Shown one piece after another: positions 6,156-56,565 of a DNA stretch of 64,000 nucleotides. The stretch is from assembly GCA_030248215.1 (NCBI GenBank), contig JASANG010000621.1, forward strand, positions 1-64,000. Reading direction: 5' to 3'. The translations under genes were made by a program, and so were the position numbers. How positions within the stretch are numbered: position 1 is the stretch's first letter; each line of letters begins with the position of its first letter. The stretch is from Enoplolaimus lenunculus (Eukaryota). The notes beneath the pieces were generated by a model that was not told where the DNA came from, made no database searches, and was given only the letters and a program-made list of their open reading frames with translations.

Positions 6156-6694
6156 TAAGCTACCACTGAGTAAACTGTCATGAAACTTTAATGGCATCGA
6201 TGATTGTCAAATTTAACATTCCTAGGATAATCAGCTCTGAACTGTTCAACAATCCAATGTTCAACACAGATAATTTTTTTTCAAGTTCATAGAACGTAAA
6301 CTACGTTTATATGTCATTTTCATTTATTTAAATTTGTTGTATGTGCGAAAAATATTCTGAAGGTTTTGGTGCTGGAAAAACCACTTTTTATTCGCAGGCA
6401 CATGCTGTAAACCTTGAAGACTACACTTATTCGTAATTTTCATACTCGTGTTTTTATCTTATCATGCATTTAGATACATTAAAAGGCTGGAACGATGCCC
6501 AATATACTTAGTTTGGGGCGTTCTAGTTTTAATATATAGATTTGTTTGTTAAAATTTGTTCCAAAATTATAGCCAGCTATACAAATGAGCTACAAAATAA
6601 AGCGACCGGGCAAAATAATGTGTAAAAAACATCACCCTGTTAAAATACGATACAAAATGCACGAGCAATTTGGTAATATTTTTGATTTTGGCCC

Positions 6695-9403
6695 GGCAAA
6701 TTCAAATTTTGTCGGTAAATTCGAATTTTGACGCGAAATTTGAATTTTGGCAGAAAATTCAAATTTCGCCGGGAAAAATTAAATTTTGGCGGGAAAACTT
6801 AAATTTTGGCAGGAAAACTTAAATTTTGGCAGGAAAACTTAGATTTTGGCGGGAAACTTTGATTTAGGTGGGAAATTCAAATTTTGGCAGTAAAATTTAA
6901 ATTTTGACGAGAAAACTTAAATTTTGGCGGGAAATTCAAATCTTGGCTTGAAAACGGGAAAACATAGATTTCGGTGGGAAATCCAAATTTTGGCGGTAAA
7001 ATTTAAATCCTGGCTTGAACATTCATGTTTTGGCGGAAAATTTAATTTTTGGTGCGAAATTCAAATTTTGGCGGGAAATTCAAATTTTTGCGAGAAAATT
7101 CATATTTCAAGTTTTGGCATGAAATTCAAATTTTGAATTTTGCATGAAATTCAAATTTTGAATTTTGGCGGGTAAACTTAAATTTTGGCGGGAAATTCAA
7201 ATTTTGGCGGGAAAATTCAAATTTTGGCGGTAAATTTGAATTTTGACGCAAAATTCAAATTTTTGCGGGAAAATTCATATTTTGGCGGGAAAATTCAAAT
7301 TATGGCAGGAAAACTTAAATGTTGGTGGGAAATCCAAATTTTGGCGGTAAATTCAAGTTTTGACGGGAAATTCGAATTTTGGCGGGAAATTTAAATTCCG
7401 TCAGGAAAAATTAAATTTTAGCGGAAAAACTTAAATTTTGGCGGGAAAACTTAGATTGTGGTGGGAAATCCAAATTTTGGCGGTAAAAAATTTAAGTTTT
7501 GGCGCGAAATTCAAATTTTGGCGCAAAAATTTAAATTTAGGCGAAATTCAAATTTTGACGAGAAAACTTAAATTTTAGCGGGAATTTCAAATCTTGGCTT
7601 GAAAATTTAAATTTTGGTGCGAAAATCCAATTTTGGCGGAAATTCAAATTTTGGCGGGAAAATTAATATTTCAAGTTTTGGCATGAAATTCAAATTTTGA
7701 ATTTTGGCGGGTAAACTTAAATTTTGGCGGGAAATTCAAATTTTAGCGGGAAAATTTAAATTTGGGCGTGCAATTCAAATTTTGGCGGTAAATTTGAATT
7801 TTAGCGGGAAAATTCGTATTTCAAGTTCTGGCATGAAATTCAAATTTTTAATTTTGGCGGGTAAACTTAAATTTTAGCGGGAAATTCAAATTTTAGCGTT
7901 AAAATTACAATTTGGGCGTGCAATTCAAATTCTAGCGGTATATTTGAATTTTGGCGGCAAAACTTAAATTTTGGCGGCAATTTCAAATTTTGGCGGAAAA
8001 ATTTAAATTTAGGCGAAATTCAACTTTTGACGGGAAATTCAAACTTTGGCGGGGAATTCAAATTCCGTCGGGAAAAATTAAATTTTGGCGGGAAAACTTA
8101 AATTTTGGCGGGGGGAAAACTTAGATTGTGGTGGGAAATCCAAATTTTGGCGGTAAAAAAATTCAAATTTTGGCACGAAATTCAAATTTTGGCGGAAAAA
8201 TTTAAATTTAGGCGAAATTCAAATTTTGACGAGAAAACTTAAATTTTAGCGGGAATTTCAAATCTTGGCTTGAAAATTTAAATTTTGGTGCGAAAATCCA
8301 ATTTTGGCGGAAATTCAAATTTTGGCGGGAAAATTCATATTTCAAGTTTTGGCATGAAATTCAAATTTTGAATTTTGGCTTGTAAATTTAAATTTTGGCG
8401 GGAAATTCAAATTTTAGCGGGAAAATTTAAATTTGGGCGCGCAATTCAAATTTTGGCGGTAAATTTGAATTTTTGCGGGAAAATTCGTATTTCAAGTTTT
8501 GGCATGAAATTCAAATTTTGAATTTTGGCGGGTAAACTCAAATTTTGGCGGGAAATTCAAATTTTAGCGCTAAAATTTTAATTTGGGCGTGCAATTCAAA
8601 TTTTAGCGGTATATTTGAATTTTGGCGGCAAAACTTAAATTTTGGCGGCAATTTCAAATTTTGGCGGAAAAATTTAAATTTAGGCGAAATTCAACTTTTG
8701 ACGGGAAATTCAAACTTTGGCGGGGAATTCAAATTCCGTCGGGAAAAATTAAATTTTGGCGGGAAAACTTAAATTTTGGCGGGAAAACTTAGATTGTGGT
8801 GGGAAATCCAAATTTTGGCGGTAAAAAAATTTAAATTTTGGCGCGAAATTCAAATTTTGGCGGAAAAATTTAAATTTAGGCGAAATTCAAATTTTGACGA
8901 GAAAACTTAAATTTTAGCTTGAATTTCAAATCTTGGCTTGAAAATTTAAATTTTGGTGCGAAAATCCAATTTTGGCGGAAATTCAAATTTTGGCGGGAAA
9001 ATTCATATTTCAAGTTTTGGCATGAAATTCAAATTTTGAATTTTGGCTTGTAAATTTAAATTTTGGCGGGAAATTCAAATTTTAGCGGGAAAATTTAAAT
9101 TTGGGCGTGCAATTCAAATTTTGGCGGTAAATTTGAATTTTTGCGGGAAAATTCGTATTTCAAGTTTTGGCATGAAATTCAAATTTTGAATTTTGGCGGG
9201 TAAACTCAAATTTTGGCGGGAAATTGAAATTTTAGCGCTAAAATTTTAATTTGGGCGTGCAATTCAAATTTTAGCGGTATATTTGAATTTTGCCGGAAAA
9301 TTCAAATTTTTGCGGGAAAATTCTAAATTTTGGCGACAAAACTTAAATTTTGGCGGCAAATTCAAATTTTGGCGGAAAAATTTAAATTTAGGCGAAATTC
9401 AAC
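6695..9403. repeat. ~20-bp minisatellite with ~670-bp higher-order repeat
   Basis: Unit approximately AATTCAAATTTTGGCGGGAA; variant TTAGATTGTGGTGGGAAATCC recurs at about 7451, 8121 and 8789; short reverse-strand patch at about 2090-2265. Confidence 0.92.
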
Positions 9404-10578: not shown

Positions 10579-12542
10579 TGTAACACAGCGAACCCAGAAA
10601 TTCAAATCGATCGGCACTCCGGGGAACGACTTCCTAACTAAGTTCGAAGGTTACCAAAGCAAACACAAACGGCTAATTCTCTTACAATAAAAAATGACAC
10701 GGGGCGCCTACTGAATCAAATCAAGTTGATAACCCCACGCCCAAAATAGACTCCGTACACAATATTCAGAAAACTCCGCAGAGCACAAATCGTGCTAACG
10801 CAAAATTCGCTACGTACCACTGACGCCCCAAAATTAAATAAATTTGTAAGATTACGGCACCTTTGCAGGGTAGGCTCATAACAACGCACCAAAAATTATC
10901 CTGTGGCACCCTGATTCCACTTCGATACTAGAAATATTCCGAATTAGCACAAAAATAAACCACTGTTTACCAACAAATTTTCCACTAATTTCCAAAAGAT
11001 ACAATTCACGACGAGAAATTTATGCGAACTAGTGCTCACTCACAGCACCGAACCTGTTAAAACTCTCTAAGTGTCGTTAAAAACAAAATAAGTGATTGAA
11101 TAATTTACGGATTCCTTACGGAAATAACTCGTATGCGCGCGCTCTATTGTATACGCAAGTACAACCGCTAAAATTCTCGAACAGACCTCTTGTCTGACAC
11201 CACAAATTCCCAAAATCTATGCACTTATATTTAACGCAAGTTTCTACAAAACTTCCACTGCACCACGATTTCAGTTAAAATGCTACAACTCTAACTCAAA
11301 AATTATCGCACACAGCGGTTCTTAACTAATCTTAATACTTCCCGTACAAACTAAGTAAACGCCTTTAAGCGCTCAACAAAAATCAAAATCGCGCGTCTCT
11401 ATACGTCGCTAAACAATCGGACAGCATATCACACCCGTACAACTCTGAGCCCCCAAACCCAACCTGTTCTACTCTTATATAGTCGTGAACCGAAAGGTTA
11501 GCTGAATTCTAAGAATCTTATACTACATTTTTAAAATTCCTCCAAATTTCTGAAAAACTAATAAATTTTACTTATCTACAGTTTTTCTTACAAATTTCAA
11601 CTTAAAAATTTTGTTAAAATCTAACAAAAACCTGTTTTGTCTAAAAAATCTAGTTTTTAGATGAAAATTTAAACTTTTAAATCGGTTAAAAAATCTAAAT
11701 TATGTTGTTTTGACCCTAGTAATTTATTTTAAAAACAAAATTGATCTTTCAAATCGCATAAAAAGTAAAAAAATCCACTATTTTGACGAAAATCCGTAAT
11801 TTTCAAAACAAAATTTTAGCTAAAAATTTACAAAAATTTACATAAAAACTAAGTTTTGACCAGAATTTATAAATTTCAAAACAAATTTTATTTTTTAAAT
11901 TAAAATTTTAAAATAACTTCTAATATTTTGTCTTCAAATTAAAATTTGCAATCGTTTTAATTCTAGGAATTAAGCCTACCAAAATTTCCAAAAAGGGGAT
12001 AATTTCAGTACTATTTCACAGATATGGAATTTTCTCTGTTATACTATGCTACAAATTGTATCTCGGAAATAAAACCTTGATTTTAAGGTACAAATTTATT
12101 CCTTTTTATGGTTTCAAACATGATGAACCTGGCCTAAAAATTGCAATTATAGCAAGGACAAAACTCAACTAAAACGACTGCAAACAAAAAACTACAATCT
12201 ATCCGCACCGCATAACTCCTGCGCCTACTGTAAACCTAACCCGTGTATAAAAACTAAAAGCATAAAATCGCGGAGGCAAAAAAATATATATTGCTGGCTG
12301 TATAACCCAACAACAACAACAACAATAAACAACAACAACAACAATAAACAACAACAACAATATTACTACAACAACAACAACAATATTACTACAACAACAA
12401 CAACAATATTACTACATGTATGTATGCACACATACAATTGATACACACTACACAAGCATCACTACAGGGTAATAGGTATAAAAAATTTTAAAATTTCGAA
12501 ACGGGGGTATTCTAAGAATTTCAGCTACCCCCCCACTCTACA
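10579..12542 (-). repeat. 3' LTR (1964 bp)
   Basis: Minus strand reads TGTAGAGTGGGGG...GTGTTACA; 10579-10840 and 11434-11830 align to the other LTR; contains a (CAA)n tract at about 12307-12415. Confidence 0.85.
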
Positions 12543-12560
12543 CTCTCCTCACTTTATTTT
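12543..12560 (-). other. Polypurine tract
   Basis: Minus strand AAAATAAAGTGAGGAGAG directly precedes the TG of the 3' LTR. Confidence 0.8.
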
Positions 12561-14315
12561 GAGCGAGCTCCTGCGAGTTAACTTAAACTACTTCCTAAAA
12601 CAAAAAAAACTACCACAACCCCAAAAATATACTTACCAATCACAGTCGAAGCCTTTGGACCATGATCCGAGGCGCTTCACCAAATATTGGCCTGTCATTC
12701 GATAGCTATCGTCAACCGCTTAACCATTAAAATGTAGAGTTAATCAACTGAACTTCCTAAAATAAGAATTCCTAAAAATACAACAACAATAATATTAAAT
12801 TATAGACAAAATTTAGCTTTGCGTTTAAGAAATTGGTGGCTTCCTTACGGAAAGCAATGTTTCCGAAAAATAACAGAACACTATTTACACACCGAATCCA
12901 AGTATATTTTAACTCACCAGCTGTTCGCTAAAAAATGCCTAAAATACATCGACGATTACACAACATAATATTTAAACTGTACACAAAGAATTAAGTTAGA
13001 TAAGTAAGGAAACACATTGGCTGCCTTACGGCTACAGTAATTTAATTTTCAATAAAGTAGCTAATGACTCAAACTAAATTTTTTTTTTTTTTAGTTTTAA
13101 GTTTCTCTTCCTTTCATTTCTTTTGTTTTGTTTTATTAATTTACAATTGTACATACCCGTATTAAAGCTCACGCTAGGTAAGCCAAACTTACTATGTCTA
13201 TACATTCCAACACTTTTTAAGACTTGTTGGTATAAAAATTACATGATCACCCTGAAATAAAATACAATGTATATGATTAACATTAAAGCGATATATACAG
13301 CATTGGTAATATTTGACAAAATTATGGCTTCCTTGCGGTCATAAATGTTTTTGTAATAACTAAAACATTGCATTTTACATAGCTAATCGACGTGTTATAA
13401 TATGTTCGAAAACAATAACTAAAATACCATCTACAAAAGTACATTAATTACTCTCTGTACATTGAGGCACATGGAGTAAATAATAAGTAAACAAATTGAC
13501 TCCCTTACGGGTTCAAATACCAGATATGAGAAAAGAAAATAAAAAGTATTTTTATTTAGTTTTATTTATTTAATTTTTTTAATCTTACGCCCAAAGATAT
13601 ATATTTTTTTACATATTTTTTTGTTTATTTTTGTTTTGCATATAATTTACAAATATGTACATAGTTGCTTTACACCACGTAATCGAGGATAGATACTTAC
13701 AGTCACTGCAAGTTGATAAGCTTTCTAATTACACTAATCAAAACAATTAATCCAGACACAATAAAAATTCCTCACCATGCTGCCATTGTTCGCCCACATA
13801 TCTTTGCCGGATCACCCATTGACTGTCTCATATAAGCTGCTTTTCCGATGATTGCTAAAACAGGTATTTTAAAATATAAAAACATCTAGTTCATAACATG
13901 AAACATAAGTTAAAGAACGTAGGGCTCCCTTGCGGGCATATGCTACAACTGAACTCACCATTGAAACGAGATAAAAATTTTGCATATCAGTACCAAAATA
14001 GACTCATTGCAGATTTATGCATGAGTGATTAGTAATTGTTCGGTCAACTTAGAAAGCTGTCTGTGCGCACGCCATTGTTTGAAACACTAAAATGGTAGTA
14101 TATGGAAATAGGCAACTCTATGATTTCCTTACATACTCATTAATTGAATTGTATGGCTCCCGTATGGGTAAAACGCCTATAGTATTTAAATGGCTAAGCT
14201 AGTTCAAACATAGGCAAAACCTGTGTTGTTATTTTTTTTATTATAAAACTCAAACTGAAATTATCCTTACAATAACATGGTAACACTGTGATTAGTGACT
14301 AACATTAACGAAGCA

Positions 14316-14903
14316 CTATTCAACATAGCAGTACACAATGTTAAAAACATTCGGTCGCGAAATCAAAGGTGCTCGTGGTATTAGTTTTTTTCTTGAAACA
14401 AGTTTTTTATTACTTAATTCTACCCGCAAACGCATTAGCATATGACCCATTTCATTTCTTCCTGGCCAGCTAGCTGGACATGCGAACTGTGGATCAAATT
14501 TAGTTACTCCAGTTCCCCAAAATGAATCATATTTATTAGTTTCTGCTATAAGGCAAGTTCCTGTATCAACCAATGCATCTCTAAGCGTAGGGTGTTGACA
14601 AAACTTCGCATAAACCGCTTTTTCCATAACACGGAGCTTGTCTTTCTTCCACCCTGCAATCAATCGCCTACCTACAAAAGTTCTTAACATTAATTTTTGT
14701 TCAATGGCCATCAGTCGTTTTGCTTGTTTAGGATCACTAGTCTTTAATATTTCTTTAGCTAACTGCAACCTACCAAGTTCTTTGGCTTTAGTGTATTGGT
14801 AGAAATGCTCCACTGATGCATAACCTTGGCCATCAATTACAATCGGAACTAAATATAAGTTTGAAAACACATGAGATGACCCGATAAACGGAACTATAAT
14901 CAT
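14316..14903 (-). CDS. NADAR/YbiA-family hydrolase (195 aa from first ATG; frame open to 15002)
   Basis: Family motifs FSNLY..PIVIDG..YASVEHFYQ..KA, W....LRVMEKAVYAKFCQHPTLR..L..TG, IAE...D.FWGTG and W.GRN.MG.MLM.LR. Confidence 0.9.
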   Translation of the reverse strand: MIIVPFIGSSHVFSNLYLVPIVIDGQGYASVEHFYQYTKAKELGRLQLAKEILKTSDPKQAKRLMAIEQKLMLRTFVGRRLIAGWKKDKLRVMEKAVYAKFCQHPTLRDALVDTGTCLIAETNKYDSFWGTGVTKFDPQFACPASWPGRNEMGHMLMRLRVELSNKKLVSRKKLIPRAPLISRPNVFNIVYCYVE

Positions 14904-15161
14904 GTTATTTGTGCTTAATCTACGAGGAAAGGTATAAACTAACCTAATGGAATATATTGAGAATATGGCCAACCAGCGTTGATGGTAAATCCGCACAGCC
15001 AAATCCTACCGCAACCTCCAGTGAAATTTATTGCAGTTAATGGAATTAAGCAACAGTTGAGATTAGAGCAGCTGTTGAAATGTCCAGAATATAGGCACGC
15101 GAAGCGTAATTATTATGCGATGACTAATGTTATGTTAGGGATATATAGGCAGTAATATAGT

Positions 15162-18100
15162 TTATCGCGATGCTGGTAATGGATTAGCTAAATTAATCCG
15201 CATATGTATGAACCGTTTTACTGCCGGAGCCATTGGCTCAATCCAGGCGTTCGCTTCGCTACACTCTCTAATAGACTCACGGACCAGAGGCTGATCAAGG
15301 AAGTGCAACGTGTTGCATACAAAGAAATTAGCTTTTCTGGCCCGCGTAATAGTAACGTTCACTCGCCGATACTCAGATAAGAAGCCTAGCGGGTGTGGCT
15401 GACCCGCTGCGTCTAATGATGGGAGTGACCGGACGAGAGAAATGATCATATAATTTCTCTCGTCCCCTTGCCAGACATTAGCACATCCGATTTTTATGTC
15501 TGGATATTCCCTACCTACCATCTGTTTGAGCAGTTCCGTCTGAATTGCATATGCTGCATTGATTCCAATATCCGCCGGTGGCACCCCACCCTGGTGTACC
15601 AGCAGCTCAACCAACTTAGTTACCGCCATCAGTTCATGTCTATTGTACAGACTCACACCATGGTACGCCTGTTGCCCTTCGATATGCCAGATCACAATGG
15701 GTTGCCCAAAGGGGATTTGGCGAACGCTAGGCCAGTCGGTGTGTTGCAACCACTGGTCAGCGGAACAAAGCAAGGGCGTTTCAGTATACACCACGCGATT
15801 TGGCGGTTCCAGTAGTGCTGGCACTGAACGGTAATTTTCACGTAGTTGTATTACTCGGCAGTCAGTACTGTTTTTCGCTAATGTCAACAATAACTCCATC
15901 CCTGATTCTTCCGCGCCGAATTGCCACAAAACCCTGTTGGTGACATATGCCGGTAGCTGGTGCACGTCACCCATCAAGATAACTTGACCGGCCACTGCTA
16001 ACGGTAGAACCACCGACATGCGCGGTAAGTCCACTGAGGCGGCCTCATCGATTGCTATTACGTCGAAAACGCCATGACCGTAATTGGGCTCGTTTTTACA
16101 ATGATGAAATGCGTCTAAATTGTTCACAATGTCCATAATAGCCATATCCATGGTGCACACAATGATTTTATGATATAACAAAGCACCAGATGACTTAAGT
16201 TCCCGCTGCCCGTCTTGTTCGGTGGTGTTAGGATCGCTTCGCGTCGCGCAGTACGGCTGTAACACTGGATCAATGAGATTCATGTCGTAGTTGCGCCGTA
16301 GGTAGCGCACGACGACTCCGGGTGGTATGACCTCGTTGTTACTAAGGGACTGTAAATTTTGAACCAGTTTTAGCGCGAGAATATTTGCAGCAGCGTTGGT
16401 GCTTGTGACACACAAAAAACGCTTCTCTGGATTGCTCCATGACAATGCGGAAAGAATGCGGGCAAGGGTGCTGGTTTTTCCTGTTCCGGGAGGTGCGCGA
16501 CAAAGACTAACTTTTACACCCTGAATCAGTGCGGTAAAAACTTGTGACTGGTTATAATTTAACCAGTGTTGTACATACTCGTCAGTCGTTCTGGTCGTTC
16601 GCCACTGTATGGGTTTCTGATTCAGTTCATTCCTAAGGCCACAAAAAAGCAAACCATACCACGACCTCCAGGCGGCAAAGAAACGTTGTCGAAATTGTAT
16701 ACGGCGGCTGTTCGCCAGGACTTGAGCATCAGCGGTCGGTTCGACAGACGCTGATGACGTGGATGATTGCTCCGAAGTGTCAGGCATTTCAATATCCCCT
16801 TCCGGTTGCTGCGGTAAACTCGGAAGCTGTGGCTGCTCGATCACACAGTTTAATAGTGAAATTAAATATTCCAGTGCAGGACCCATCATTGGAACCAATT
16901 GAACGTCTCGTAAGTTTCGAAGGTTGGGACCATCATAGAATATGTTTCGCGTTCCTTTGTTCAGTTTGATGACGACCATGGTGTGATTGATGTTAATAGG
17001 CTGTGAACCGACTACTGCGACGACTATCTTGACTTTCCAGTCCGATTGTACTAAATTAGCCAGGCGCGTGAGTCGAAGGTTGCGAAATTCGTTGGTGTCC
17101 ACTGTAACCGTCAAGAACATGGAATCGGGTGGCGATTTCTCAAACTCGTATAAATCGGAGCTTCCGCTATTCGCAATGGTTTCGAAATCACTAGCTACAG
17201 TTGGTGATACCGTAGTCACCGTCGCCTTTGGAGGGTCGTCTTCCTCGTACTGAACCTGGCCTAATAATTCTGCAAGTACGCGGTGAGGCAAATTGTTAAA
17301 GGTTACAGGTCGAGTCGGGTCAAGGATTGCCAGGATATCGTTCTTATTAGGTGTACTAGGCAGAGGCTCTGGTGCATCTGCCGCCACCAGCCGGTGATAA
17401 ACCGGGCGTTCGACCAATGTCTGAGCTGGTGCTATGGCGAACTGATACCAGATTTCAAAGTATGGTGATAGGTGCGGTATAGTTATCTTGGTTGGTTTCA
17501 AACAACGATTCACAGTTGCAGGGTCTTTTCGCTCGTTCGGTACGCCAAGAGCAGATTGTGGAACCAGCGACAGGTGCCCAGCCTGCTGTTCTGCACTCGA
17601 TTTACGAATCAGCGCTTGCAAGGCCTCATCAATTTTCTCATCGAGATATAAGTCGCGGAAATCCCATTGGATTATCGTCGTGAACGGGGCAAATTTGTTT
17701 ACTCGGCGACGTGATTGATACTGAACCCACATTTGTAGCTCGTAGTAGTGTAACCCAAGCCGACCCTCACCGGAAATGGTCACGTGAAATGTGGGTGATT
17801 GGTTACGTGCACGGGGCATTACGGGACTAAATACAACGCCGTCCGGAACGATACAGTTTGGGGTACGTGGTATAAACAGTTGAAAGGGCTGCCGATCCGT
17901 AGTGGTAGCGTCGAATAAAAGAGTGGATACCTGGTCAAAGTCCGACAGTCCTTGGATGACTGGCAATGCTGGAGCTTCAGGCGCCCAAGGTGCGCCGAGA
18001 TGAAAACTGGCCTGTCCATTGTCTGCTCCAACACATTCAATCAACACCTGAGCACCATACATCGAGTTTTTAAGCTCAGTGATGCTGCCGATCCTGCGTC

Positions 18101-18542
18101 TTTCAATCCACTTCTGGTGTTCAACCAATGCTACCCCCACCGGACTAAATCGAAATTTCTGCACTTCAATGCTGACCATATGAAACGGAGTCCACAAATG
18201 ACTGGGGCCAAATATAACCGTTCGGCATACAGGACATAAAGTCATTGGACTCTGGGGCAAATTCTTAGGCCAAGCTACGTACTGGAGCTGCTCTGCTAAT
18301 CGCTCCCAAAGCGCATGATCTAGTGGACTGGAATCGTCTGTTAAACCCAATTCGCATAGAGCTGGGCGCAGAGCATCAATAGGTAAATAGGCCGAAAGAC
18401 AGTTCAGTGCTGCGGATTGGCTGTAGGGGTGAAGCGTCTCGCGAATTAAAGATGTAGCAACGAGATTGGACAAAGCCGGAGGAATGCCAAGTCGAGCACT
18501 AAACTCCACGACGGGGTTAGGGCTACCAGCAGCAGAATTCAT
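15162..18542 (-). CDS. Upf1-like superfamily 1B helicase (1126 aa, intronless)
   Basis: Walker A APPGTGKT, Ia TSTNAAANIL, Walker B IDEAA, III GDVHQLP, LRENYRS, YNRHE, V WQGDERNYMIISLVRS, VI RRVNVTITRAR. Confidence 0.92.
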   Translation of the reverse strand: MNSAAGSPNPVVEFSARLGIPPALSNLVATSLIRETLHPYSQSAALNCLSAYLPIDALRPALCELGLTDDSSPLDHALWERLAEQLQYVAWPKNLPQSPMTLCPVCRTVIFGPSHLWTPFHMVSIEVQKFRFSPVGVALVEHQKWIERRRIGSITELKNSMYGAQVLIECVGADNGQASFHLGAPWAPEAPALPVIQGLSDFDQVSTLLFDATTTDRQPFQLFIPRTPNCIVPDGVVFSPVMPRARNQSPTFHVTISGEGRLGLHYYELQMWVQYQSRRRVNKFAPFTTIIQWDFRDLYLDEKIDEALQALIRKSSAEQQAGHLSLVPQSALGVPNERKDPATVNRCLKPTKITIPHLSPYFEIWYQFAIAPAQTLVERPVYHRLVAADAPEPLPSTPNKNDILAILDPTRPVTFNNLPHRVLAELLGQVQYEEDDPPKATVTTVSPTVASDFETIANSGSSDLYEFEKSPPDSMFLTVTVDTNEFRNLRLTRLANLVQSDWKVKIVVAVVGSQPININHTMVVIKLNKGTRNIFYDGPNLRNLRDVQLVPMMGPALEYLISLLNCVIEQPQLPSLPQQPEGDIEMPDTSEQSSTSSASVEPTADAQVLANSRRIQFRQRFFAAWRSWYGLLFCGLRNELNQKPIQWRTTRTTDEYVQHWLNYNQSQVFTALIQGVKVSLCRAPPGTGKTSTLARILSALSWSNPEKRFLCVTSTNAAANILALKLVQNLQSLSNNEVIPPGVVVRYLRRNYDMNLIDPVLQPYCATRSDPNTTEQDGQRELKSSGALLYHKIIVCTMDMAIMDIVNNLDAFHHCKNEPNYGHGVFDVIAIDEAASVDLPRMSVVLPLAVAGQVILMGDVHQLPAYVTNRVLWQFGAEESGMELLLTLAKNSTDCRVIQLRENYRSVPALLEPPNRVVYTETPLLCSADQWLQHTDWPSVRQIPFGQPIVIWHIEGQQAYHGVSLYNRHELMAVTKLVELLVHQGGVPPADIGINAAYAIQTELLKQMVGREYPDIKIGCANVWQGDERNYMIISLVRSLPSLDAAGQPHPLGFLSEYRRVNVTITRARKANFFVCNTLHFLDQPLVRESIRECSEANAWIEPMAPAVKRFIHMRINLANPLPASR

Positions 18543-18940
18543 AATTAAAGAGCGTTGATAATTACGGCGCCTTTACAGGCAAAATGTCGCTGCTAAACTC
18601 GTAATGTTACTGTTGTTGATATATGATGACTATGGGTCCCTTACGGGTAAAACATTGCTGCAGCCAGCAGTACATAACTTTGACAGTTGAAGGTCGATGA
18701 TAATAAAACGTAACAACTATGGATCCCTTACGGGTACACAGCGCTGCCACAAGCAACCATATTAATAGCAGTTGAATGCTGATATTATTGCTACTACTTT
18801 TAATACGTAATAATAATAATAATAATGTAATTTGACAGTTACGGGTCCCTTACGGGTTATAACTACTTTGTTTATTTCAAACGACACGACATCGTGCGTA
18901 GTCCCGATCGCCAATGACATTAATGCTATGGAAATTGTGA

Positions 18941-21900
18941 TTACAACGGAAAATGGCTAGAGCCACGAGCGCGTAAATTATACCGATGCATTGCCCGAGG
19001 TACGGGCGCAGTGGTTTCCTGGTGCTCCTGTTCCCTTGCATCAATGTCACTAGATGCCGTTTCCATAGCAGAGTCGTTACCGTTTGATACATACTGCAAT
19101 TCATGATTGCTGGATAAACCGGGATTTTTATCTACTTCTAATCCGTTCTCAATATCTACGTCCATATTTGCCTTCGTACTGCAGGTACCGGTTTCATCTT
19201 GACGTAATTCAGGTACATAAGGACCATAAAAAGGTTTAATGCGTTCTACATGCACCCTTTTATGTTGCTCCTTAGGGTTAGTTATGGATTGCAAAACAAC
19301 ATCAGGAAATACTAACTCTATGATTTCATAAAGACCGTGCCATTCTTGTCCTAATTTCTTAGTTTTTCCTTTCTTTTGAAAAGGCACGTGCAATAGGACC
19401 TTTTGTCCCTCAAAGAAATGCGGTTCCGCGGCACGACGATCATGATAAAATTTCATGTGATCTTGGGCTGACTGTATGTTTTGCTTAGCCAACGCCCATG
19501 CTGCTTTAAGGGTAAGTTGCAAATCCCTAAAGCAATCTTCTTCATCTAAGTAATTGACGTTACTAATTGGCAATGCTACATCAATTGGCAGCCGTGGTTG
19601 TCTCCCATAAACTAATTCAAAGGGGCTAAGCCGTGTAGATTCGTTAACACTTACTCTATAAGCAAAACAAGCAAACGGAACGAACTCATCCCAAGTGCGT
19701 TGAGCACTGTCTATGTATTGAGAGACCATGTTCATTAAGGTACGATTTATTCGTTCCACCACCCCATTGGTTTGGGGTCGATAGGGTGTTGTAAAAACTT
19801 TTCGGGTTCCTGTAATTTTACAAATTTGGTCAACTAATTCGCTTCGAAAATTAGGTGCATTGTCACTAATTAATTCACATGGGGCTGAATGGCGACAAAC
19901 TACCTCAGTCATAAACAATTTTGCAATAGTAGTGGCTTTTTGATCAGGAGTGCAAATGGCCTCGGGATATTTTGTAAAACGATCAATAAAAATTACCACG
20001 TATTTGTTCCCATTATAGGTTTGGGGTAATGGGCCAAGAACATCCACATGATATGAAAAATTGGGCTGCGTAGTAGGAATTGGATTCAATGGTGCCTTAG
20101 GCCTGGCCGGTCCAGTTTTACGCTTACTGCACTCGATGCAAGCCTTGCACCAATTTACTACGTCACGGTACATCCCATCCCAAAAATACTTGGGTAATAA
20201 CTTTTGATATGTCTTGGCAACACCAAGGTGTTGTCCACCAACAACATCATCATGATGTGCTGATAGTAATTCTTCACGCATAGAGAAAGGAACAACTAAT
20301 TGTTCCCAGAGTACACCGGGTCGATATTTGGGTATAGGATAATGATGGTACAAAACTCCATTTTTTACTACATAACGTGGCTGGATTAATGCAAAGTGCG
20401 AAGCCAGCTTTGCATCATCCGGGTTTTTACCAAATTCAATATATTCCTTTAAAGCCTTAATCTCTGGGTCCTGCTCTTGTTTTTCCGCAAACGGAATAGT
20501 TGATGGTAGGTCCTGCTTGTTGGAAGTTTCACTTAAGGCAACTGCGTATGCAAACTTAATATCTTCCTCATCAGAACCTTCTTCTAATTTAGAAATTTCA
20601 GTACGAGAAAGGGCATCAACATGCGACATATTTTTACCCGCTCGGTGTTCAACATTAAAATCGTATTCACTTAAAGCAAGTGCCCAACGCTGTAATCTTC
20701 CCGATGCATTCTTATTAGTTAATAACCATCGAAGGGCTGAGTGATCAGTTATTATAGTCACATGCTGTCCGTATATATAATTACGAAAATACTTCATAAA
20801 ATAAACAACAGCTAATGCTTCCAATTCAGTAGTGGTGTAATTCCGTTCAGCTTTTTGAAGCAAACGACTACCATAAGCAATAGGATGGGCTCTGCCCTCG
20901 TTATCTTTTTGAGATAACACAGCTCCAATTGCCTTACCGCTAGCATCTGTTTCCAAAATGTATGGCTTGCTGGGATCGGCTATTTGCAAAATTGGAGGAG
21001 ACATAAGTTTAGATTTTAATAATTGAAATGCTTTTTCAGCCTCTGAATTCCATTTAAAAGGTTTCAAGGTGCTAGTAAGTTGACTAAGTGGCTTAGCAAT
21101 TGCTGCGAAGTCTTTTATAAAACGACGGTAATAACTGCAAAACCCCAAGAAACCTCGCACACCAGTAATATCATTCGGTATAGGGTAATGTTCAACTGCT
21201 TCAATCTTTTTCGGATCTGGCTTCAAGCCTTCAGCAGAAATAATATGACCTAAATATGGAACTTCTTTTCTTAAAAAGTTACATTTAGCTGGTTTAACTT
21301 TAAGACCGACATCCCTTAATCGTTCAAATACAAGACGCAAGCGTCTAATGTGCTCGTCAAAAGTTTCAGAAAACACGCATATATCGTCTATATAGATAAG
21401 GCAGACACGCTCAACTAATCCACGAAGGGTGGCCTCCAGTGTACGTTGAAAAGTAGCAGGAGCGTTGCATAAACCAAAAGGCATTTTAGTAAATTGATAC
21501 AAACCAGCTGGGGTAATAAAAGCAGTTTTCTCAATTGAATCAGAAGCCATAGGGACTTGCCAATATCCTGATATTAAATCCATAACACTAAAATACTTTG
21601 CTTTCCCTATACACTCCAGTAAATCATTAATATTCGGAAGTGGAAAACAATCCTTCTTAGTCACGGCATTTAATTTTCGGTAATCAATACAAATGCGCAA
21701 AGACTTGCCGTCTTTCTTTTTAAGTACAACCATTGGACTAGCCCAGGGGCTTGTTGAGGGCTCAATGATTCCGTAACGTAGCATGTTGCCTAACTCTGTA
21801 TCCACCTTATCCTTAGATTGAAAAGGCACCCGATAAGGTCTCTGCTTAATAGGCACTGCATCCCCAGTGTCAATTGAATGTTCAACTACTGATATAGTTC

Positions 21901-24900
21901 CACAATCGTAATCATGCTTTGCGAAAACATCGTTAAATTCCAAAAATAATTCAATCAACTTTGACTTTTCGATTCCCGAAATTTCAGACTCCTCTAATTT
22001 TAGATCAGCTATCAAATCAAAATGTGGTTGACAACTAACAGATTGTAAGTTCAATACAGTAGGTAAAACACAAGTATCTAAGGGTTCTATTCGACCAACA
22101 GTCATGCCCTTATACAGCCGAACGGGACAATTCGACATATTAAGTAATCGCAAAGGAATAACTAAGTTATCCGCATCACTTAATATTAATTCAACTGTGT
22201 TTAAACCGTATAACTGAATAAGCTTATAATTTGGTTCAAAATACACATCACCCTCATGTCCAAACCCTTTTACTTCGCAGGGTATAAGCACCTCTGATCT
22301 TGAAGGAATAAGTGTAGTATCTGGCAAGAGTACATTTTGGCTTGACCGATATCCCATCTTTAACTGCATTTTTCCAAGCTTAACAATGCCTGTTGCGTAA
22401 TCTAGACTTATAGTGCCAAATTGTCGTAGTAAATCAACCCCTAGTATTGCTGGGTGGGCGCATTCATCTGATACATACACATGAAAAGGTAGGGATTTGG
22501 AACCTATTTCAATTTGTACTTTAATAGCACCTTTCAGGGGTAATGCATGACCAGTAACTCCAACAGCGGTGGTGGCGGGTACTGGAACCAGACTAGTTTC
22601 GGGTTTATTCAATTTTCGAAAAGTTTCTGATGACATAACAGTAATATTACTTCCAGTATCGATAACTGCTCGTACAGGTATATCATTCATGTAAATTTCA
22701 ATGTCCGAAAGAGAGGGTCCTAAAGTCAAAACAGTCTCCGCTACGGTATGACTCGGAGAAAGGCTGGTTGAAAACTGTAATGCACGTTTCCGTTTGCTAC
22801 ATAAAAATTTTGATGGTCCAATAACAGTTGAATGTATAGGCAATTCCAACGTTTCAGTTTCAGGGGAAGTACATATTACTTCCACAGGGGTTGACCTTTC
22901 TTGTCCATAAGATTTACAACAGCAACGCAAACACTTAAACCATTTGCCATACCAGGCGTATATAACACATATACCCACTACCAACATGACCAACCCGACA
23001 GCTATATAACTTAATAAATCGCTATAGGGTAAATTGAAATCAGCACTAGGTGTAAAAGACAAAAGCTCCCTTTTTAATCGGGTACGAGTCAAATTAGACT
23101 GATACTCTACGTTTTCTAAGCTTCCCCACACTGGCGGTGGCACTACGTCTTGATGTAGAGTGAAATTGTATTGAACATCAGGTGAAATTTCAAAGTTAAG
23201 AGCGGGTCTAGAGGTCGACATAAGCACGCGGTCTCCAACAATCAGCATACTAAAATTTTCAAAAGGCATAAACATAACCCCGCGCTCCGGTACACGCATA
23301 GTCTCAATTACAGATGAGGAGACCAATTTTTTAGTCCTTGTGAGCTTGACAGTTGGTTCCGAAGTACGCAAAAGTAATCCAACCCGAGTGGTTTCAATAT
23401 GGGTGCCTGCAAACATTTGTTTAACTTCCATTGCACATGTATTATTATGCACTACGGCTTGGCGCATTCCTCTAAAACAGCTGTCCGCTTCGCTAGTTGG
23501 CAAAGCTTCCATCCCACAGTACCATAAACCAATACGCTTGTCACAAGCTTCGGACTTTACTTCGTGATAATACCCCTTACTAAACATACGAGCATAAGTT
23601 ACAAACTTAGGCAAAGCTAATCGGGCAATTATTTGTTTTGAAGGAATGTTAAAACCGACGTTTATAACCTTCATAAGCGGCAACACGTTCTTAATTCGTA
23701 TTAGGGGGATTTCCAAAATTATTCCAAATTTTGTTTCTCGAATATCTAGTAGCACGGGATAAACCTTAACAAAGTGGTAGAATAATCCGGGATCATGTAT
23801 GTATACTGAATTTCGCAATGTTGGCTCCTGTTTAACAAGCTTTTTAATTTGAGACGCAGACAGAATTGCGACAGATAAGCGACCGCTATCACTAGCAAGG
23901 ACTAATGCATCCACTACTTTACGTACTCCATTTATAAACTGATTTGATTGAGAAATAAAATGCGAAATCGTTACCGATTCTGTTAAACTGCAGGTCATTG
24001 TAATTCGGGTTTGTTCTACATATTTCTGTATCTCATGGGTTATTGCGAAAACTCGCTGTTGGTTAATATTCAGTTTATGAATTGCCTCCGAATTTTCAGT
24101 GATTTCGTCATTCAAAAGTCGAACACTTTTCTGGAGGGCCAAAATTTTTGGTTCCAAATGTGACAACTTAATACTATTGGCAATTCCAAGTCCGGTGCCC
24201 ATGATCGAAGTCAAACCAGTCAAAAGCAGGGGGACAAAGCGGCGATTACGACCCGAAGTAACAAAACTACAAGTGAATGGCTTTTTCTCACACATGTCTC
24301 TCATTAGCTCTTCATAAAATGCAGAGTCGATGGTATCCTCATAGTTATTAGCCAAATCCGAAAGTGCCTGTTTCTTAATCATGCTAAATAAACGCTGTTG
24401 ACCAGTGCAATTACAAAAAGTAGGTGTACCACCTTGAAAAACAAGAGGAGAGCATGGCTTAATTCGGTCTTGTCCAGCATGCACAACTACAGGCAGGTAA
24501 ATGGATTCACTTGCGGTTAACACTAGACCCTCAGGTATAAGCCCAACCCCAACAGAAGGAAAAATTTTTGGTTGTAATTGATGTAATGTTTGCGTTAAAC
24601 TAGAATCAACACGACCCGTTAAACTAAATATGAGTGCAATCACACAACAAAGTAAAATATTCCATGGCTTAAGTGGAGGAACTTTGCACCTACTTGATCG
24701 TCTAGGACAGTTACTTCGAACCGGTGGTTTATCTGTAACAGCTTCATTCAAATTTAAAGAAGCAGGTTCAGTTTGGGTAAATTTAGCAACATGATGTGTA
24801 GCCTGGATGGCTCCGACAAAATTGGGAAACGATTTTTCCACTAGGAGGGCATTTTGACTACGCAAAGTAGCAAGCTCTTTCTTAAGACGATCAATTTCTT

Positions 24901-26104
24901 GCTTAGAATCGCATCCAGAATTAACAGCTTTTGCATCATTAGATACTAGAGTAGTAGCTACAACGGCTTTGTTAGGCGGGACTGGTGATAAAGTTGGTAA
25001 ATTTGGGATATTAGGCCGCGCAGGGCGGTTAAAGTTCGATGCCGGAAAATTTGGCCGATAAGTCGACCGTCCAAAATTATTTTGAGTTTGGAGTCTGTTA
25101 TTCCGAGGAAAATTTCCGTTACGTAACAAACAGGCCATTGCTAAATGTCCAACTTTCCCACAATTATAACACTTCGGACCGCGAGGGGAAAAATTTTGAG
25201 CCAAATCGGGACGTGGATTTTGAAAGTTTCGATTTGGTGGGCCCCTATTTGGTGGACCTCGGTATCCGTTAGAAGGTTGGGGTCTGTTCCGTGGCTCAGG
25301 ATGCCTAAAGGTGTTTCTGCGCATGTTCTGTATAAGCTGCTTTTGATTATTTGCCAGCAGCTGGACTCCCCGAGCGAGCGTATGCAAAGTCTGCTTTGGA
25401 GCAGGCACGGACATGTTCAAAGGATCAACGCCTGTCGGTTTTCCACAGAGTAAAGACTGCATATCTAGGCGCTGAGCTAAGTCCTCCGCTTCCTTAAGCG
25501 TTTTTGGCATATCCCGAAAAACTTCTAGCTTAGCTTCAGTTGGAAGTAAACCGCCGAAAAATCTATGTATAACTCTACGGTCAAACGCGGCGTTGTCCAA
25601 ATTAGGATAAACACTTTTACAAGCATTCTTAATACCCTTTAAATAAGCTGCAACACTTTCACCAGGCAGCTGATGTCGCTGCTCAAGCGCTGCTTCATGG
25701 TACATAGTCCACTCAGTGGTTGTCAATTGGGCCTCTAAAGCCGGTACTAAATCAGTAAAACGGCGCTTAGATTGTTCAGGTACTCGCTCATATGCATCCT
25801 TAGCACGATCTTTTAAATAGGCAGGCAACACCTTAAGTTTCATATCATCATCAATTAAACGGGCATTACAATAAGTATTAAAAGTATCAATCCAACTTTT
25901 AAAATCAGACCCGGTTAAATCTCCCCGAAAAAATGTAATTGATAAATCAGGTTCAGTACCCAATCTTACACGTTGGGATATTAAATCAAAATCGTCACTT
26001 AATCCTCTTAAGCCATCATCTACACGATTAGCAAGATCTTTCACAACAGCATCTAGCTGAGCTATGTTCCTAGTTATATTTTCCATGTTTGGGTTTTGTA
26101 ACAC
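18941..26104 (-). CDS. Gag-Env-Pol polyprotein (capsid, CCHC knuckle, class I fusion glycoprotein, protease, RT, RNase H, integrase)
   Basis: In order: CYNCGKVGHLAMAC; hydrophobic WNILLCCVIALIFSL; RNRR/FVPLLLTGL; TM YIAVGLVMLVVGICVIYAW; VIDTGS; YIDD; ETDASG; HHCC zinc motif and DDE core (DVLGPL, ISDNAP, GVVER). No stop or frameshift. First ATG is at 26086 and the frame is open further upstream. Confidence 0.95.
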   Translation of the reverse strand: MLQNPNMENITRNIAQLDAVVKDLANRVDDGLRGLSDDFDLISQRVRLGTEPDLSITFFRGDLTGSDFKSWIDTFNTYCNARLIDDDMKLKVLPAYLKDRAKDAYERVPEQSKRRFTDLVPALEAQLTTTEWTMYHEAALEQRHQLPGESVAAYLKGIKNACKSVYPNLDNAAFDRRVIHRFFGGLLPTEAKLEVFRDMPKTLKEAEDLAQRLDMQSLLCGKPTGVDPLNMSVPAPKQTLHTLARGVQLLANNQKQLIQNMRRNTFRHPEPRNRPQPSNGYRGPPNRGPPNRNFQNPRPDLAQNFSPRGPKCYNCGKVGHLAMACLLRNGNFPRNNRLQTQNNFGRSTYRPNFPASNFNRPARPNIPNLPTLSPVPPNKAVVATTLVSNDAKAVNSGCDSKQEIDRLKKELATLRSQNALLVEKSFPNFVGAIQATHHVAKFTQTEPASLNLNEAVTDKPPVRSNCPRRSSRCKVPPLKPWNILLCCVIALIFSLTGRVDSSLTQTLHQLQPKIFPSVGVGLIPEGLVLTASESIYLPVVVHAGQDRIKPCSPLVFQGGTPTFCNCTGQQRLFSMIKKQALSDLANNYEDTIDSAFYEELMRDMCEKKPFTCSFVTSGRNRRFVPLLLTGLTSIMGTGLGIANSIKLSHLEPKILALQKSVRLLNDEITENSEAIHKLNINQQRVFAITHEIQKYVEQTRITMTCSLTESVTISHFISQSNQFINGVRKVVDALVLASDSGRLSVAILSASQIKKLVKQEPTLRNSVYIHDPGLFYHFVKVYPVLLDIRETKFGIILEIPLIRIKNVLPLMKVINVGFNIPSKQIIARLALPKFVTYARMFSKGYYHEVKSEACDKRIGLWYCGMEALPTSEADSCFRGMRQAVVHNNTCAMEVKQMFAGTHIETTRVGLLLRTSEPTVKLTRTKKLVSSSVIETMRVPERGVMFMPFENFSMLIVGDRVLMSTSRPALNFEISPDVQYNFTLHQDVVPPPVWGSLENVEYQSNLTRTRLKRELLSFTPSADFNLPYSDLLSYIAVGLVMLVVGICVIYAWYGKWFKCLRCCCKSYGQERSTPVEVICTSPETETLELPIHSTVIGPSKFLCSKRKRALQFSTSLSPSHTVAETVLTLGPSLSDIEIYMNDIPVRAVIDTGSNITVMSSETFRKLNKPETSLVPVPATTAVGVTGHALPLKGAIKVQIEIGSKSLPFHVYVSDECAHPAILGVDLLRQFGTISLDYATGIVKLGKMQLKMGYRSSQNVLLPDTTLIPSRSEVLIPCEVKGFGHEGDVYFEPNYKLIQLYGLNTVELILSDADNLVIPLRLLNMSNCPVRLYKGMTVGRIEPLDTCVLPTVLNLQSVSCQPHFDLIADLKLEESEISGIEKSKLIELFLEFNDVFAKHDYDCGTISVVEHSIDTGDAVPIKQRPYRVPFQSKDKVDTELGNMLRYGIIEPSTSPWASPMVVLKKKDGKSLRICIDYRKLNAVTKKDCFPLPNINDLLECIGKAKYFSVMDLISGYWQVPMASDSIEKTAFITPAGLYQFTKMPFGLCNAPATFQRTLEATLRGLVERVCLIYIDDICVFSETFDEHIRRLRLVFERLRDVGLKVKPAKCNFLRKEVPYLGHIISAEGLKPDPKKIEAVEHYPIPNDITGVRGFLGFCSYYRRFIKDFAAIAKPLSQLTSTLKPFKWNSEAEKAFQLLKSKLMSPPILQIADPSKPYILETDASGKAIGAVLSQKDNEGRAHPIAYGSRLLQKAERNYTTTELEALAVVYFMKYFRNYIYGQHVTIITDHSALRWLLTNKNASGRLQRWALALSEYDFNVEHRAGKNMSHVDALSRTEISKLEEGSDEEDIKFAYAVALSETSNKQDLPSTIPFAEKQEQDPEIKALKEYIEFGKNPDDAKLASHFALIQPRYVVKNGVLYHHYPIPKYRPGVLWEQLVVPFSMREELLSAHHDDVVGGQHLGVAKTYQKLLPKYFWDGMYRDVVNWCKACIECSKRKTGPARPKAPLNPIPTTQPNFSYHVDVLGPLPQTYNGNKYVVIFIDRFTKYPEAICTPDQKATTIAKLFMTEVVCRHSAPCELISDNAPNFRSELVDQICKITGTRKVFTTPYRPQTNGVVERINRTLMNMVSQYIDSAQRTWDEFVPFACFAYRVSVNESTRLSPFELVYGRQPRLPIDVALPISNVNYLDEEDCFRDLQLTLKAAWALAKQNIQSAQDHMKFYHDRRAAEPHFFEGQKVLLHVPFQKKGKTKKLGQEWHGLYEIIELVFPDVVLQSITNPKEQHKRVHVERIKPFYGPYVPELRQDETGTCSTKANMDVDIENGLEVDKNPGLSSNHELQYVSNGNDSAMETASSDIDAREQEHQETTAPVPRAMHRYNLRARGSSHFPL

Positions 26105-26296
26105 AAGGTGGGAGTTACTATCGAGGGGTTCAGAAAATTCAGAATCGTCGTCGCTGGATTCTAAGACACCAGTACTGCGTAATTTGTATCGAGCCGTTAT
26201 TTTTACAAAACAAACTGAACGTTCTTTAAAAGGGTAAAGGTTAGCACTCGGACAAAATTTTCGACCAAAGCTCGTTTACCGGTTAAGAAAACTGGT

Positions 26297-26314
26297 ATCT
26301 CGGTGGGACCTCCA
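26297..26314 (-). other. Primer binding site, tRNA-Gln
   Basis: TGGAGGTCCCACCGAGAT lies 2 nt from the 5' LTR end and is complementary to the metazoan tRNA-Gln 3' end (ATCTCGGTGGGACCT-CCA). Confidence 0.88.
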
Positions 26315-26316
26315 AA

Positions 26317-28323
26317 TGTAACACAGCGAACCCAGAAATTCAAATCGATCGGCACTCTGGGGAACGACTTCCTAACTAAGTTCGACGGTTACCAAAGCAA
26401 ACACAAACGGCTAATTCTCTTACAATAAAAATGACACGGTACGCCTACTGAATCAAATCAAGTTGATCTTCCCAAGCCCAAAATTGACTCCGTACACAAT
26501 TCAGAAAACTCCGTATAGCACAGATCGTGCTGACTCAAAATCCACTACGTACTACTGACGCCCCAAAATAAAATAAGAAATGCAAAATTATGGTCCCTTT
26601 ACAGGTGCAATTCCAAATAAATTGCTAAATAATGACTTCTCGGAAATAGTATAGTTCTACTCCAAACACAACGACTCCCCTTAAGTAATCAAGTCAGCCT
26701 AATATCAGAATTTTAGGCCAGGAAATTAAAAAAGAATCAAATAGTTCAACACCACCAATATACACTTCTCGATAATTACCAGTTTCAACTTAGGGTCCAA
26801 AAATATGCGAAGTACTCTTTGCACGAAAAAAATCAAAATTGCGTAACTCTTGCAAAAAAATAAATCAAGTAATTTAATAACTACGGCTTCCTTACGGAGC
26901 AAAGTCGTAGCTGCGCGCAGTTTGCTATAAATCACCAAGGAAGTACCTAAATTTGCTACAATTGTCCCACCAGCAATTTTTTTCAACAAAATTTAACTTA
27001 AGTAGGCAGAAAATTTCTCGCCTACTACGGGCTCCCAAATACTCAAAATATCCTCTACGCGTACTATTCACCAAGTATCCCACGACACAACTTAACGCGC
27101 AACCGTAAATTTTATATAAACACAGGCACCCTAAGTTCAAAACAATTCGCATAAATCGCCGGTACTAATTCTCCGATAAGAAATTGGGCAGCGGTTCGCT
27201 CCCGTACAACTCTGAGCCCCCGAACCCAACCTGTTCTGCGCTTATATATTCGTAAACCGAAAGGTTAATTGAGTTCTAGGAATTTTATGATAAAATTTTA
27301 AATTCTTTCAAAAATGTTGAAAAACCACTAAATTTAACTTAAAAAAGATTTTCTTAAAATTTTCTAACTCAAAATTTTGTTAAAATCGAACAAAAAGCTG
27401 TTTTGTCTTAAAAATTCAGTTTTTAGAAGAAAATTTAAACTTTTAAAATAGCTCAAAAATCTAAAGTATGTTGTTTTGACAGAAGTAATTTATTTTAAAA
27501 ACAAATTTGATCATTCAAATCGCATAAAAAGTTGAAAAAAGTACTATTTTGACGAAAATCCGTAATTTTCAAAACAAAATTTTAGTTAAAAATTTTAAAG
27601 AGTTCTTAGAATCCTAATGTTGTGGCTTCGAATGGTTGTTTCAAGGTTCCTACAATTCTCAGAACTGTCATTCTTTAACTTCTTAAAAAGGGGCTACTCG
27701 ACCACCATTCTGGACTTAGATTACAATTTTATACTACAAAATATTAAATAACATGTCCTAGACTTCTCGCAGTAGTGCATATCCATCAGGAAGCTGATAT
27801 TGATATCCGACTATAGACTAAGCCTGATTTACCCAATACCCCGCTTATTTTTACGCAACTACCACATAATCCGACAAATTCAATTTCTCACATATGTGAG
27901 CATTCATACAATTCGATATTCTACATGAAAGCTAAAGTAATGAGCAATAATTACACTACTTGCCTACACAACACTGCACTTGCAAGTGTTCCAAAGTGCA
28001 CTGGAATAAATATACACACAAACAGATGTATGAACAATTGTTTAAGTCCTTTCAGTAGGTCCAATAGCAATATAACAGCACAAATCTTCCCAATAGCACC
28101 AACCTCAACTGTACACAATAATTAAAACACACGCACATATACAAATGTATAATACATGAACACACTAATTGTATATGTATACACAATATGTATACACATA
28201 TATATTGCACCATACACATCAATAAAATGGGATAAACTTAAAAAATTTCCTCCGACGTTACAAAAAGGGGGTTTTAAAGTCACACCAGGGTATCCTAAAA
28301 ATTCTAAAATCCCCCACGCTACA
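26317..28323 (-). repeat. 5' LTR (2007 bp)
   Basis: Minus strand reads TGTAGCGTGGGGG...GTGTTACA; abuts the PBS; aligns in blocks to 10579-12542. Confidence 0.85.
27200..27250 (-). promoter_or_regulatory. Putative LTR core promoter (TATA box and initiator region)
   Basis: TATATAAG at 27241-27248, mirrored at 11474-11481, followed ~30 nt downstream by GCTCAGAGTTGTACGGG conserved in both LTRs. Confidence 0.6.

Positions 28324-33421: not shown

Positions 33422-33454
<33 letters not shown>

Positions 33455-56135: not shown

Positions 56136-56565
<430 letters not shown>

Follow-up and report, generated by a model that had tools for sequence, protein, structure and literature searches.

A stand-alone YbiA-type NADAR gene is carried as cargo by an envelope-bearing Ty3/gypsy retroelement

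NADAR domains have already been published in two kinds of retrotransposon, within the Pol of a Gypsy lineage of Ectocarpus and within ORF1 of Tx1 LINEs of the oyster Crassostrea gigas (PMC12477816). The element described here resembles both in that a retrotransposon carries a YbiA-type NADAR; the text of that paper cited here does not assign a function to the domain either. In the Ectocarpus and oyster elements NADAR is fused into Pol or ORF1 (PMC12477816); ours is a separate 3′ ORF that follows a helicase ORF, its loop is lengthened, and its carrier is an animal element with an envelope. Nematode Ty3/gypsy elements of the GAG-ENV-POL type have their envelope between gag and pol, as here (PMC13524379; Sacco 2022 cited therein). 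This gene order is known from nematodes, bryozoans and flatworms, the nematode elements of the survey carry only gB-type envelopes, and its main text never mentions NADAR or a helicase (PMC13524379). In the window, the gag-env-pol order together with TTAGGC repeats and weak TIL and BPTI_nem matches, described below, makes a nematode the probable host. Our element differs from the surveyed ones in an envelope that looks F-type, which we treat as a lead only, and in two accessory ORFs after pol. The LTR elements of bdelloid rotifers likewise place enzymatic cargo downstream of pol, as an ORF3 that usually has a spliced message of its own; the enzymes are a GDSL esterase and a DEDDy nuclease, and NADAR is not mentioned in the text cited (PMC5408684). 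Viral SF1 helicases have been reported in insect LINEs (PMC5563155). The literature searched, which did not extend to subscription papers or Repbase entries, contained no stand-alone, helicase-paired, loop-remodelled NADAR within an element that bears an envelope. The new part is thus the free-standing, helicase-paired form of the gene; that NADAR occurs in retrotransposons is already known.

The element lies on the minus strand of the window, by which we mean the whole 64,000-nucleotide stretch of Enoplolaimus lenunculus DNA that was analysed. Its order is LTR, PBS, Gag-Env-Pol ORF, Upf1-like helicase ORF, NADAR, non-coding DNA, PPT and LTR (Table 1). The PBS is one that we take to be assigned to tRNA-Gln. 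The long frame encodes a Gag with a CCHC knuckle, an envelope-like segment, protease, reverse transcriptase (YIDD), RNase H and integrase, and the best PDB match of the Pol portion is Ty3 Gag-Pol (E 2.7e-121). The order protease-RT-RNase H-integrase and the TG...CA LTRs abutted by PBS and PPT are traits of Ty3/gypsy elements, and by these coding and terminal features the element is of the Ty3/gypsy (Metaviridae) type. NADAR sits between helicase and PPT, as the first-pass annotation had it, though 1.75 kb of DNA without long ORFs separates it from the PPT. The two LTRs are about 75% identical (1358 of 1807 aligned columns, in an alignment whose ends were displaced by ~2 nt); they are well conserved in two blocks only, one of 292 nt at the U5 end (89.7%) and a central one of 423 nt (83.7%). 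No target-site duplication was found in the flanks of the element. Mismatched LTRs and the missing duplication, alongside ORFs that are all open, make it probable that this copy arose by recombination between two related copies or is a mosaic of the assembly, and not that it is a fresh insertion. The LTR mismatch concerns the history of the copy and not its class.

Table 1. Positions of the element's features in the window
Feature	Position	Strand	Remarks
5′ LTR	26317..28323	minus	~2.0 kb, TG...CA
PBS	26297..26314	minus	starts TGG, 2 nt inside LTR end
Gag-Env-Pol, single frame	18941..26275	minus	2444 codons, first Met 26086
Envelope-like segment, Gag to protease	22946..24658	minus	same frame as Gag and Pol
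AATAAA-like hexamer after pol	18876	minus	
CCGYAAGG hairpin, 3 copies, pol-helicase spacer	18621..18870	minus	starts 18855, 18733, 18646
Upf1-like superfamily 1B helicase ORF	15162..18572	minus	1136 codons, first Met 18542, stop 15162
AATAAA after helicase stop	15027..15032	minus	~110 nt before NADAR acceptor
Candidate splice or trans-splice acceptor TTTCCTCGTAG	14920..14930	minus	G at 14920, 16 nt before NADAR ATG
NADAR gene, stand-alone, YbiA-type	14903..14316	minus	195 aa, ATG to stop
AATAAA-like hexamer after NADAR	14242	minus	
CCGYAAGG hairpin, 5 copies after NADAR	12825..13950	minus	starts 13935, 13510, 13338, 13031, 12850
PPT	12543..12560	minus	abuts 3′ LTR
3′ LTR	10579..12542	minus	~1.96 kb
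CCGYAAGG hairpin, one per LTR	starts 26897, 11121	minus	

The envelope-like segment contains a furin-like RNRR at residue 676, followed by a hydrophobic peptide, and a transmembrane-like stretch from residue 1084. In the ESM Atlas it was placed with F0 clusters at 0.96, with a recognition of 1510, which is below 2300. No fusion-protein match was obtained in PDB or Pfam; an F-type assignment is a lead only.

The NADAR ORF sits in a stop-free frame (15005..14316, minus strand) of a length that did not occur in any of 1000 shuffles of the 2.6 kb around it. The protein scores 111.9 bits against Pfam PF08719 (E 4.8e-32; gathering cut-off 35.1) and matches E. coli YbiA with E 6.1e-12; the NADAR family set is common to all 30 of its 30 ESM Atlas matches. 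Structure prediction and a comparison of catalytic residues, both proposed in the first-pass annotation, gave a YbiA-type fold with all three catalytic positions kept. The model was built on a 67-sequence alignment and has a pLDDT of 92.2 (a single-sequence fold reached only 36.8); the domain spans residues 1-165 and the C-terminal tail is of low confidence. It shows the helical core and two small sheets of the YbiA fold. The model superposes on the NADAR of Phytophthora nicotianae (8BAU) with Z 19.3 and an rmsd of 2.1 Å over 158 residues, and on YbiA (2B3W) with Z 18.2; the best unrelated structure gave Z 3.6. Sequence identity to these two proteins is 25% and 34%, respectively. The DarT1-antitoxin NADAR of Geobacter (8BAT, BC4488 family) gave a Z of only 8.1; it shares with our protein the superfamily, the first Glu and the Lys. 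BC4488 NADARs have a distinguishing Asp, an N-terminal extension and an adjacent darT1 gene. In the element the Asp is replaced by Glu-121, the YbiA-family Glu of the last strand (E125 in 8BAU), the domain starts at Met1 with no extension, and no darT1 transferase gene lies beside it, the neighbours being the helicase ORF and non-coding DNA. Because residue 121 is Glu, sequence and predicted model together place the element's NADAR in the YbiA family and not with the DarT1 antitoxins; the earlier likening to those antitoxins had picked the wrong subfamily.

The protein also scores 101 bits, above the cut-off of 73.7, against TIGR02464, a family of N-glycosidases acting on riboflavin intermediates. 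To our knowledge animals do not make riboflavin; the genes next to NADAR are those of a retroelement, and no riboflavin biosynthesis gene is fused or linked to it. A match to a small-molecule N-glycosidase is nonetheless what would be expected if the enzyme destroyed a soluble NAD-derived signal or metabolite of host immune enzymes, an ADP-ribose derivative, and not a mark on nucleic acid. DarT1 antitoxins carry a basic N-terminal extension that presumably binds DNA, and the domain has nothing of the kind. Soluble targets have been proposed for many viral NADARs (PMC9503650). The same source assigns the NADARs of eukaryotic RNA viruses mainly to macromolecular ADP-ribose, and the literature consulted shows no small-molecule substrate other than the riboflavin intermediates; we regard a soluble target as very unlikely.

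The contacts of 8BAU with ADP-ribose have been described (PMC11543638). Alignments indicate that six of them are kept in the element's NADAR: E43 as E32, K50 as K39, W89 as W85, E125 as E121, D130 as D126 and W133 as W129. E32 and K39 thus correspond to the catalytic Glu and the phosphate-binding Lys. K75, near the contacts, is kept as K62, and R93 is replaced by K89. Every conserved column of the 67-sequence alignment (3 invariant, 12 near-invariant) is retained. The predicted fold, the catalytic Glu/Lys/Glu and the Trp/Asp pocket are shared with both 8BAU and YbiA; the element's protein differs from these two in its mobile-element context and in a longer helical segment in place of the adenine loop. 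The segment from Lys-62 to Trp-85 is 24 residues long; the usual length, seen in 114 of 175 aligned domains, is 15. It also lacks a Gly that 130 of 174 homologues have at the third position past the conserved Lys. In 8BAU adenine, ribose and pyrophosphate are bound by the loop G78-R79-x-V81-x-x-Y84-x-D86; the element's NADAR does not keep this loop in register, having nine extra residues at its position and a Gly-Arg shifted to 78-79. Here the model predicts a helix-turn-helix of helices 58-72 and 76-103. The first-pass description of the NADAR motifs as intact therefore holds for the catalytic residues and fails for this loop.

Such a loop could mean that the substrate has been altered or catalysis lost, in which case the protein would bind or decoy a partner protein or a target bearing ADP-ribose and would not cut ADP-ribosylated guanine. 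Of the 175 domains, three have the 24-residue length: the element's NADAR and a near-identical pair from a metagenomic cluster (P0015 and P0156, on contigs of <1 kb). The retained catalytic positions and pocket speak against this reading, as does the natural variation of the loop, whose Arg is present in 36% and Gly in 76% of 144 homologues. Homologues differ in the adenine loop, which belongs to a single structure (8BAU) and does not define the family. The metagenomic pair is 37% identical to the element's protein, ungapped from Met1, and P0156 retains Gly-Arg at the same shifted site. That the pair shares both the loop length and the shifted Gly-Arg suggests that the lengthened loop was inherited and did not come about by decay; in neither of the trees described below, however, does the pair group with the element's NADAR. 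A changed or lost activity is, in our judgement, quite unlikely; the unusual loop may hold a clue to the substrate.

Contigs from three DNA runs (two samples of one study, the best-matching run being possibly the window's own source) cover 30 of 30 bins of 13700-20000. One contig of run X1 (1649 nt, 13709-15356) carries the end of the helicase, the whole of NADAR and the 3′ flank with one differing letter, and further contigs join pol to the spacer and the spacer to the helicase. The second sample (X3) also covers the NADAR gene; 12 of 23 indels were listed, and all of these lie outside the gene. Helicase pieces of ~85% identity with single-base gaps are found among the contigs, so older, decayed relatives of the element are present. 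In run X1 the main NADAR contig has a depth of 349 and the diverged pieces 20-48, which hints at many near-identical copies, depth not being the same as copy number.

A motif, CCGYAAGG-[AGC]-A-[GT]-CC, occurs in 10 copies with at most one mismatch where 0.3 are expected, all on the sense strand of the element and all in its non-coding parts. It would form a hairpin with a GNRA-type loop, GUAA or GCAA, followed by A-[G/U/C]-C-C. Pairing is seen in 29 of 30 cells; the outer pair covaries (C-G in 5 copies, U-A in 3, G-C in 1) and the two inner pairs are invariant. A loop variant starts at 14167 on the minus strand. Searched against Rfam, the whole element gave no match with an E of 1 or below. 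The hairpins are possibly packaging, export or processing signals. Because contigs span the helicase end and NADAR, and because the two LTRs carry the same element-specific hairpin motif as the DNA next to the cargo, NADAR is real cargo of the element. This bears out the first-pass proposal of a NADAR gene carried by an LTR element, the intact ORF lying inside a Ty3/gypsy element.

Whether the cargo is of use to its carrier is a separate matter. NADAR could be a neutral passenger whose source was the host or some other mobile element, and which is intact only through recent expansion of the family. A broken NADAR fragment in the same window shows that local donors exist, and among the listed differences of sample S2 (40 of 639) three of the four differing NADAR codons change the amino acid and one is silent. 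The three changes all sit at variable columns. In the helicase the nine isolated sites scored gave two changed and seven silent codons, a five-site cluster at 17685-17706 having been left out; the contrast between the two genes is not significant (Fisher p 0.22). There is no sign of strong constraint on NADAR, and constraint is neither shown nor excluded. Several features of the gene sit poorly with a passenger. It is intronless, and its ORF starts exactly where the domain starts. It has its own candidate acceptor and poly(A)-like signals, and its third-position GC (0.29) matches that of gag-pol (0.31). It is at most ~45% identical to any match found, yet keeps every conserved column, and the local fragment is only 29% identical to it over 68 residues and has an ordinary short loop. 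We consider a neutral passenger highly improbable.

The search for relatives returned 9,957 representatives matching NADAR at E 0.001 or better; among the best 150, none is more than ~45% identical. Of 50 matches scanned for further domains, one metagenomic protein (P0075) has the domain at the C-terminus of a BEL/Pao-type Pol, four fuse NADAR to mRNA-capping enzyme domains and two have a zinc knuckle by Pfam. A pattern search found a CCHC knuckle directly upstream of the NADAR domain in 9 of 150 matches, and these proteins are probably LINE ORF1. Named matches include a hookworm and an abalone protein. FastTree analysis of 175 domains (2 of 176 proteins were dropped for short coverage) placed the element's NADAR in a 17-member group with BEL/Pao and CCHC-fused NADARs (support 0.835, inner node 0.0). 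IQ-TREE, run on 55 of these domains, put it with two unnamed proteins (58.7/84), away from P0156. The phylogeny did not settle the donor. Ronivirus and nido-like replicases are among the best structural matches in a viral library, as are proteins of giant viruses; these viral NADARs are 22-30% identical to ours and embedded in replicase polyproteins, and nothing points to one of them as donor. Viral contigs searched with NADAR, integrase and helicase, and metagenome contigs searched with the NADAR alignment, gave no related locus. A metagenome search with the integrase gave a single 1.5-kb contig, 31% identical and too short to include cargo.

NADAR is thus found in Gypsy Pol, LINE ORF1 and BEL/Pao Pol and as the separate gene described here, which amounts to repeated uptake by retroelements. 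This recurrence suggests that the retroelements of invertebrates are exposed to ADP-ribosylation of their own nucleic acids. We know of no host enzyme for ADP-ribosylation of retroelement nucleic acids. The small stand-alone NADAR is the easiest of the retroelement NADARs to express and assay.

The helicase ORF carries its motifs at residues 673-1080, with AAA_11 and AAA_12 domains, a Walker A and a DE motif. Its first 660 residues gave no family match and contain a CxxC near residue 113. The best matches are of the SDE3, Armitage and SMUBP-2 types at 26-28% identity, and the ORF encodes a Upf1-like SF1B helicase, with MOV10/Armitage/SDE3 and IGHMBP2 or Upf1 as candidate subfamilies. With matches only this close, a role against RNA silencing is just a guess. 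Its third-position GC of 0.48 exceeds that of the rest of the element (0.29-0.31) and therefore suggests a separate origin. A nidoviral source of helicase and NADAR together was considered and dropped: the 18 PDB matches of the helicase (E 1e-5) are of the cellular Upf1, SMUBP-2, Dna2 and Sen1 types and none is viral.

The first-pass annotation had marked a possible acceptor just upstream of the NADAR ATG, and such a sequence is indeed present. It is the most pyrimidine-rich of the eight scorable AGs in the helicase-NADAR spacer, which contains no ATG. For both the helicase and the NADAR ORFs, the most pyrimidine-rich AG of the spacer stands shortly before the ATG. The candidate deviates from what we take to be the nematode consensus, TTTCAG. 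An AATAAA lies within 150 nt of the stop of all three ORFs (chance 0.09-0.12 each, noticed post hoc), and the ~110 nt from hexamer to acceptor before NADAR presumably resembles the spacing in nematode operons. NADAR expression would require a processed message. Given an acceptor just before the ATG and a poly(A) hexamer this far upstream, that message may be a subgenomic RNA released by processing, much as in nematode operons.

These signals would also suit a gene that serves RNA processing itself, NADAR and helicase aiding capping, trans-splicing or end clean-up of the polycistronic transcript and not counter-defence. In nematodes the trans-splicing factor SNA-3 depends on its NADAR domains (PMC9303266), some NADARs are fused to capping domains as noted above, and the Ectocarpus authors proposed processing of the RNA intermediate (PMC12477816). 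On the other side, no SNA-3 was present among the named NADAR matches (30 were looked up, most of them nameless), NADARs are inactive on RNA with ADP-ribose at a phosphate end (PMC11833690), and most retroelements dispense with such a gene for RNA processing. Such a helper role seems to us unlikely.

We tentatively favour, at somewhat less than an even chance, an N-glycosidase that clears ADP-ribose from the element's RNA or cDNA and probably counters a host or microbial ADP-ribosyltransferase. From its sequence and modelled active site, NADAR would be an active hydrolase removing ADP-ribose from guanine or cytosine bases. Every NADAR subtype assayed removes N2-guanine ADP-ribose from DNA and RNA in vitro, and YbiA types also remove it from cytidine (PMC11125620, PMC11833690, PMC12945103); because the assayed subtypes do so, base de-ADP-ribosylation is the likeliest activity. 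YbiA types hydrolyse ADP-ribosylated guanine in vitro yet do not rescue DarT1 toxicity (PMC11125620). The substrate would be the element's own RNA or reverse-transcript DNA, and the likeliest beneficiary thus appears to be that RNA or cDNA. As to the opposing enzyme, animal N2-guanine transferases are known in the butterfly (pierisin) and the clam (CARP-1) (PMC12945103), and animal RNA viruses carry NADARs proposed to counter host ADP-ribosylation (PMC9503650). A PARP-based reading is weakened because NADAR does not remove the N1-guanine ADP-ribose made by human PARP15 (bioRxiv 10.64898/2026.03.31.715305). A host ADP-ribosylation defence against retroelements, which the first-pass annotation had drawn from the gene, is kept here as a hypothesis.

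NADAR and helicase together may form a counter-defence module. In its fullest form the proposal is an operon-like, envelope-bearing element with a two-gene counter-defence kit and GNRA-hairpin cis signals, in which a MOV10/Upf1-like helicase would act against RNA silencing and the loop-remodelled NADAR would erase a host ADP-ribosyl mark. We rate this combination as doubtful; if true, it would show that nematodes defend themselves against retroelements by ADP-ribosylation. The F-like envelope, helicase, operon-like signals and repeated hairpins make an unusual architecture that was not found in the literature searched.

The second NADAR fragment, at 56998-57380 on the plus strand and also recorded as about 56998-57291 (E 3.6e-15 with the NADAR profile), has two in-frame stops and lacks its middle. 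It is flanked by two 315-nt direct repeats (56648-56959 and 58554-58864), which also occur inverted near 47400-47800 and 50350-50620, and is followed by a leucine-rich-looking open stretch. Two tRNA-Ser(CGA) calls (29780-29851 and 30085-30156, minus strand) lie in a short duplication adjoining exons of a host nucleotide pyrophosphatase/phosphodiesterase near 30246-36443 (plus strand). A minisatellite array with a 19-20-nt unit occupies 6640-9400, and a C-rich 8-nt tandem array 56041-56700. The window also contains weak, sub-threshold TIL and BPTI_nem matches and repeats of TTAGGC, which we take to be the nematode telomere unit.
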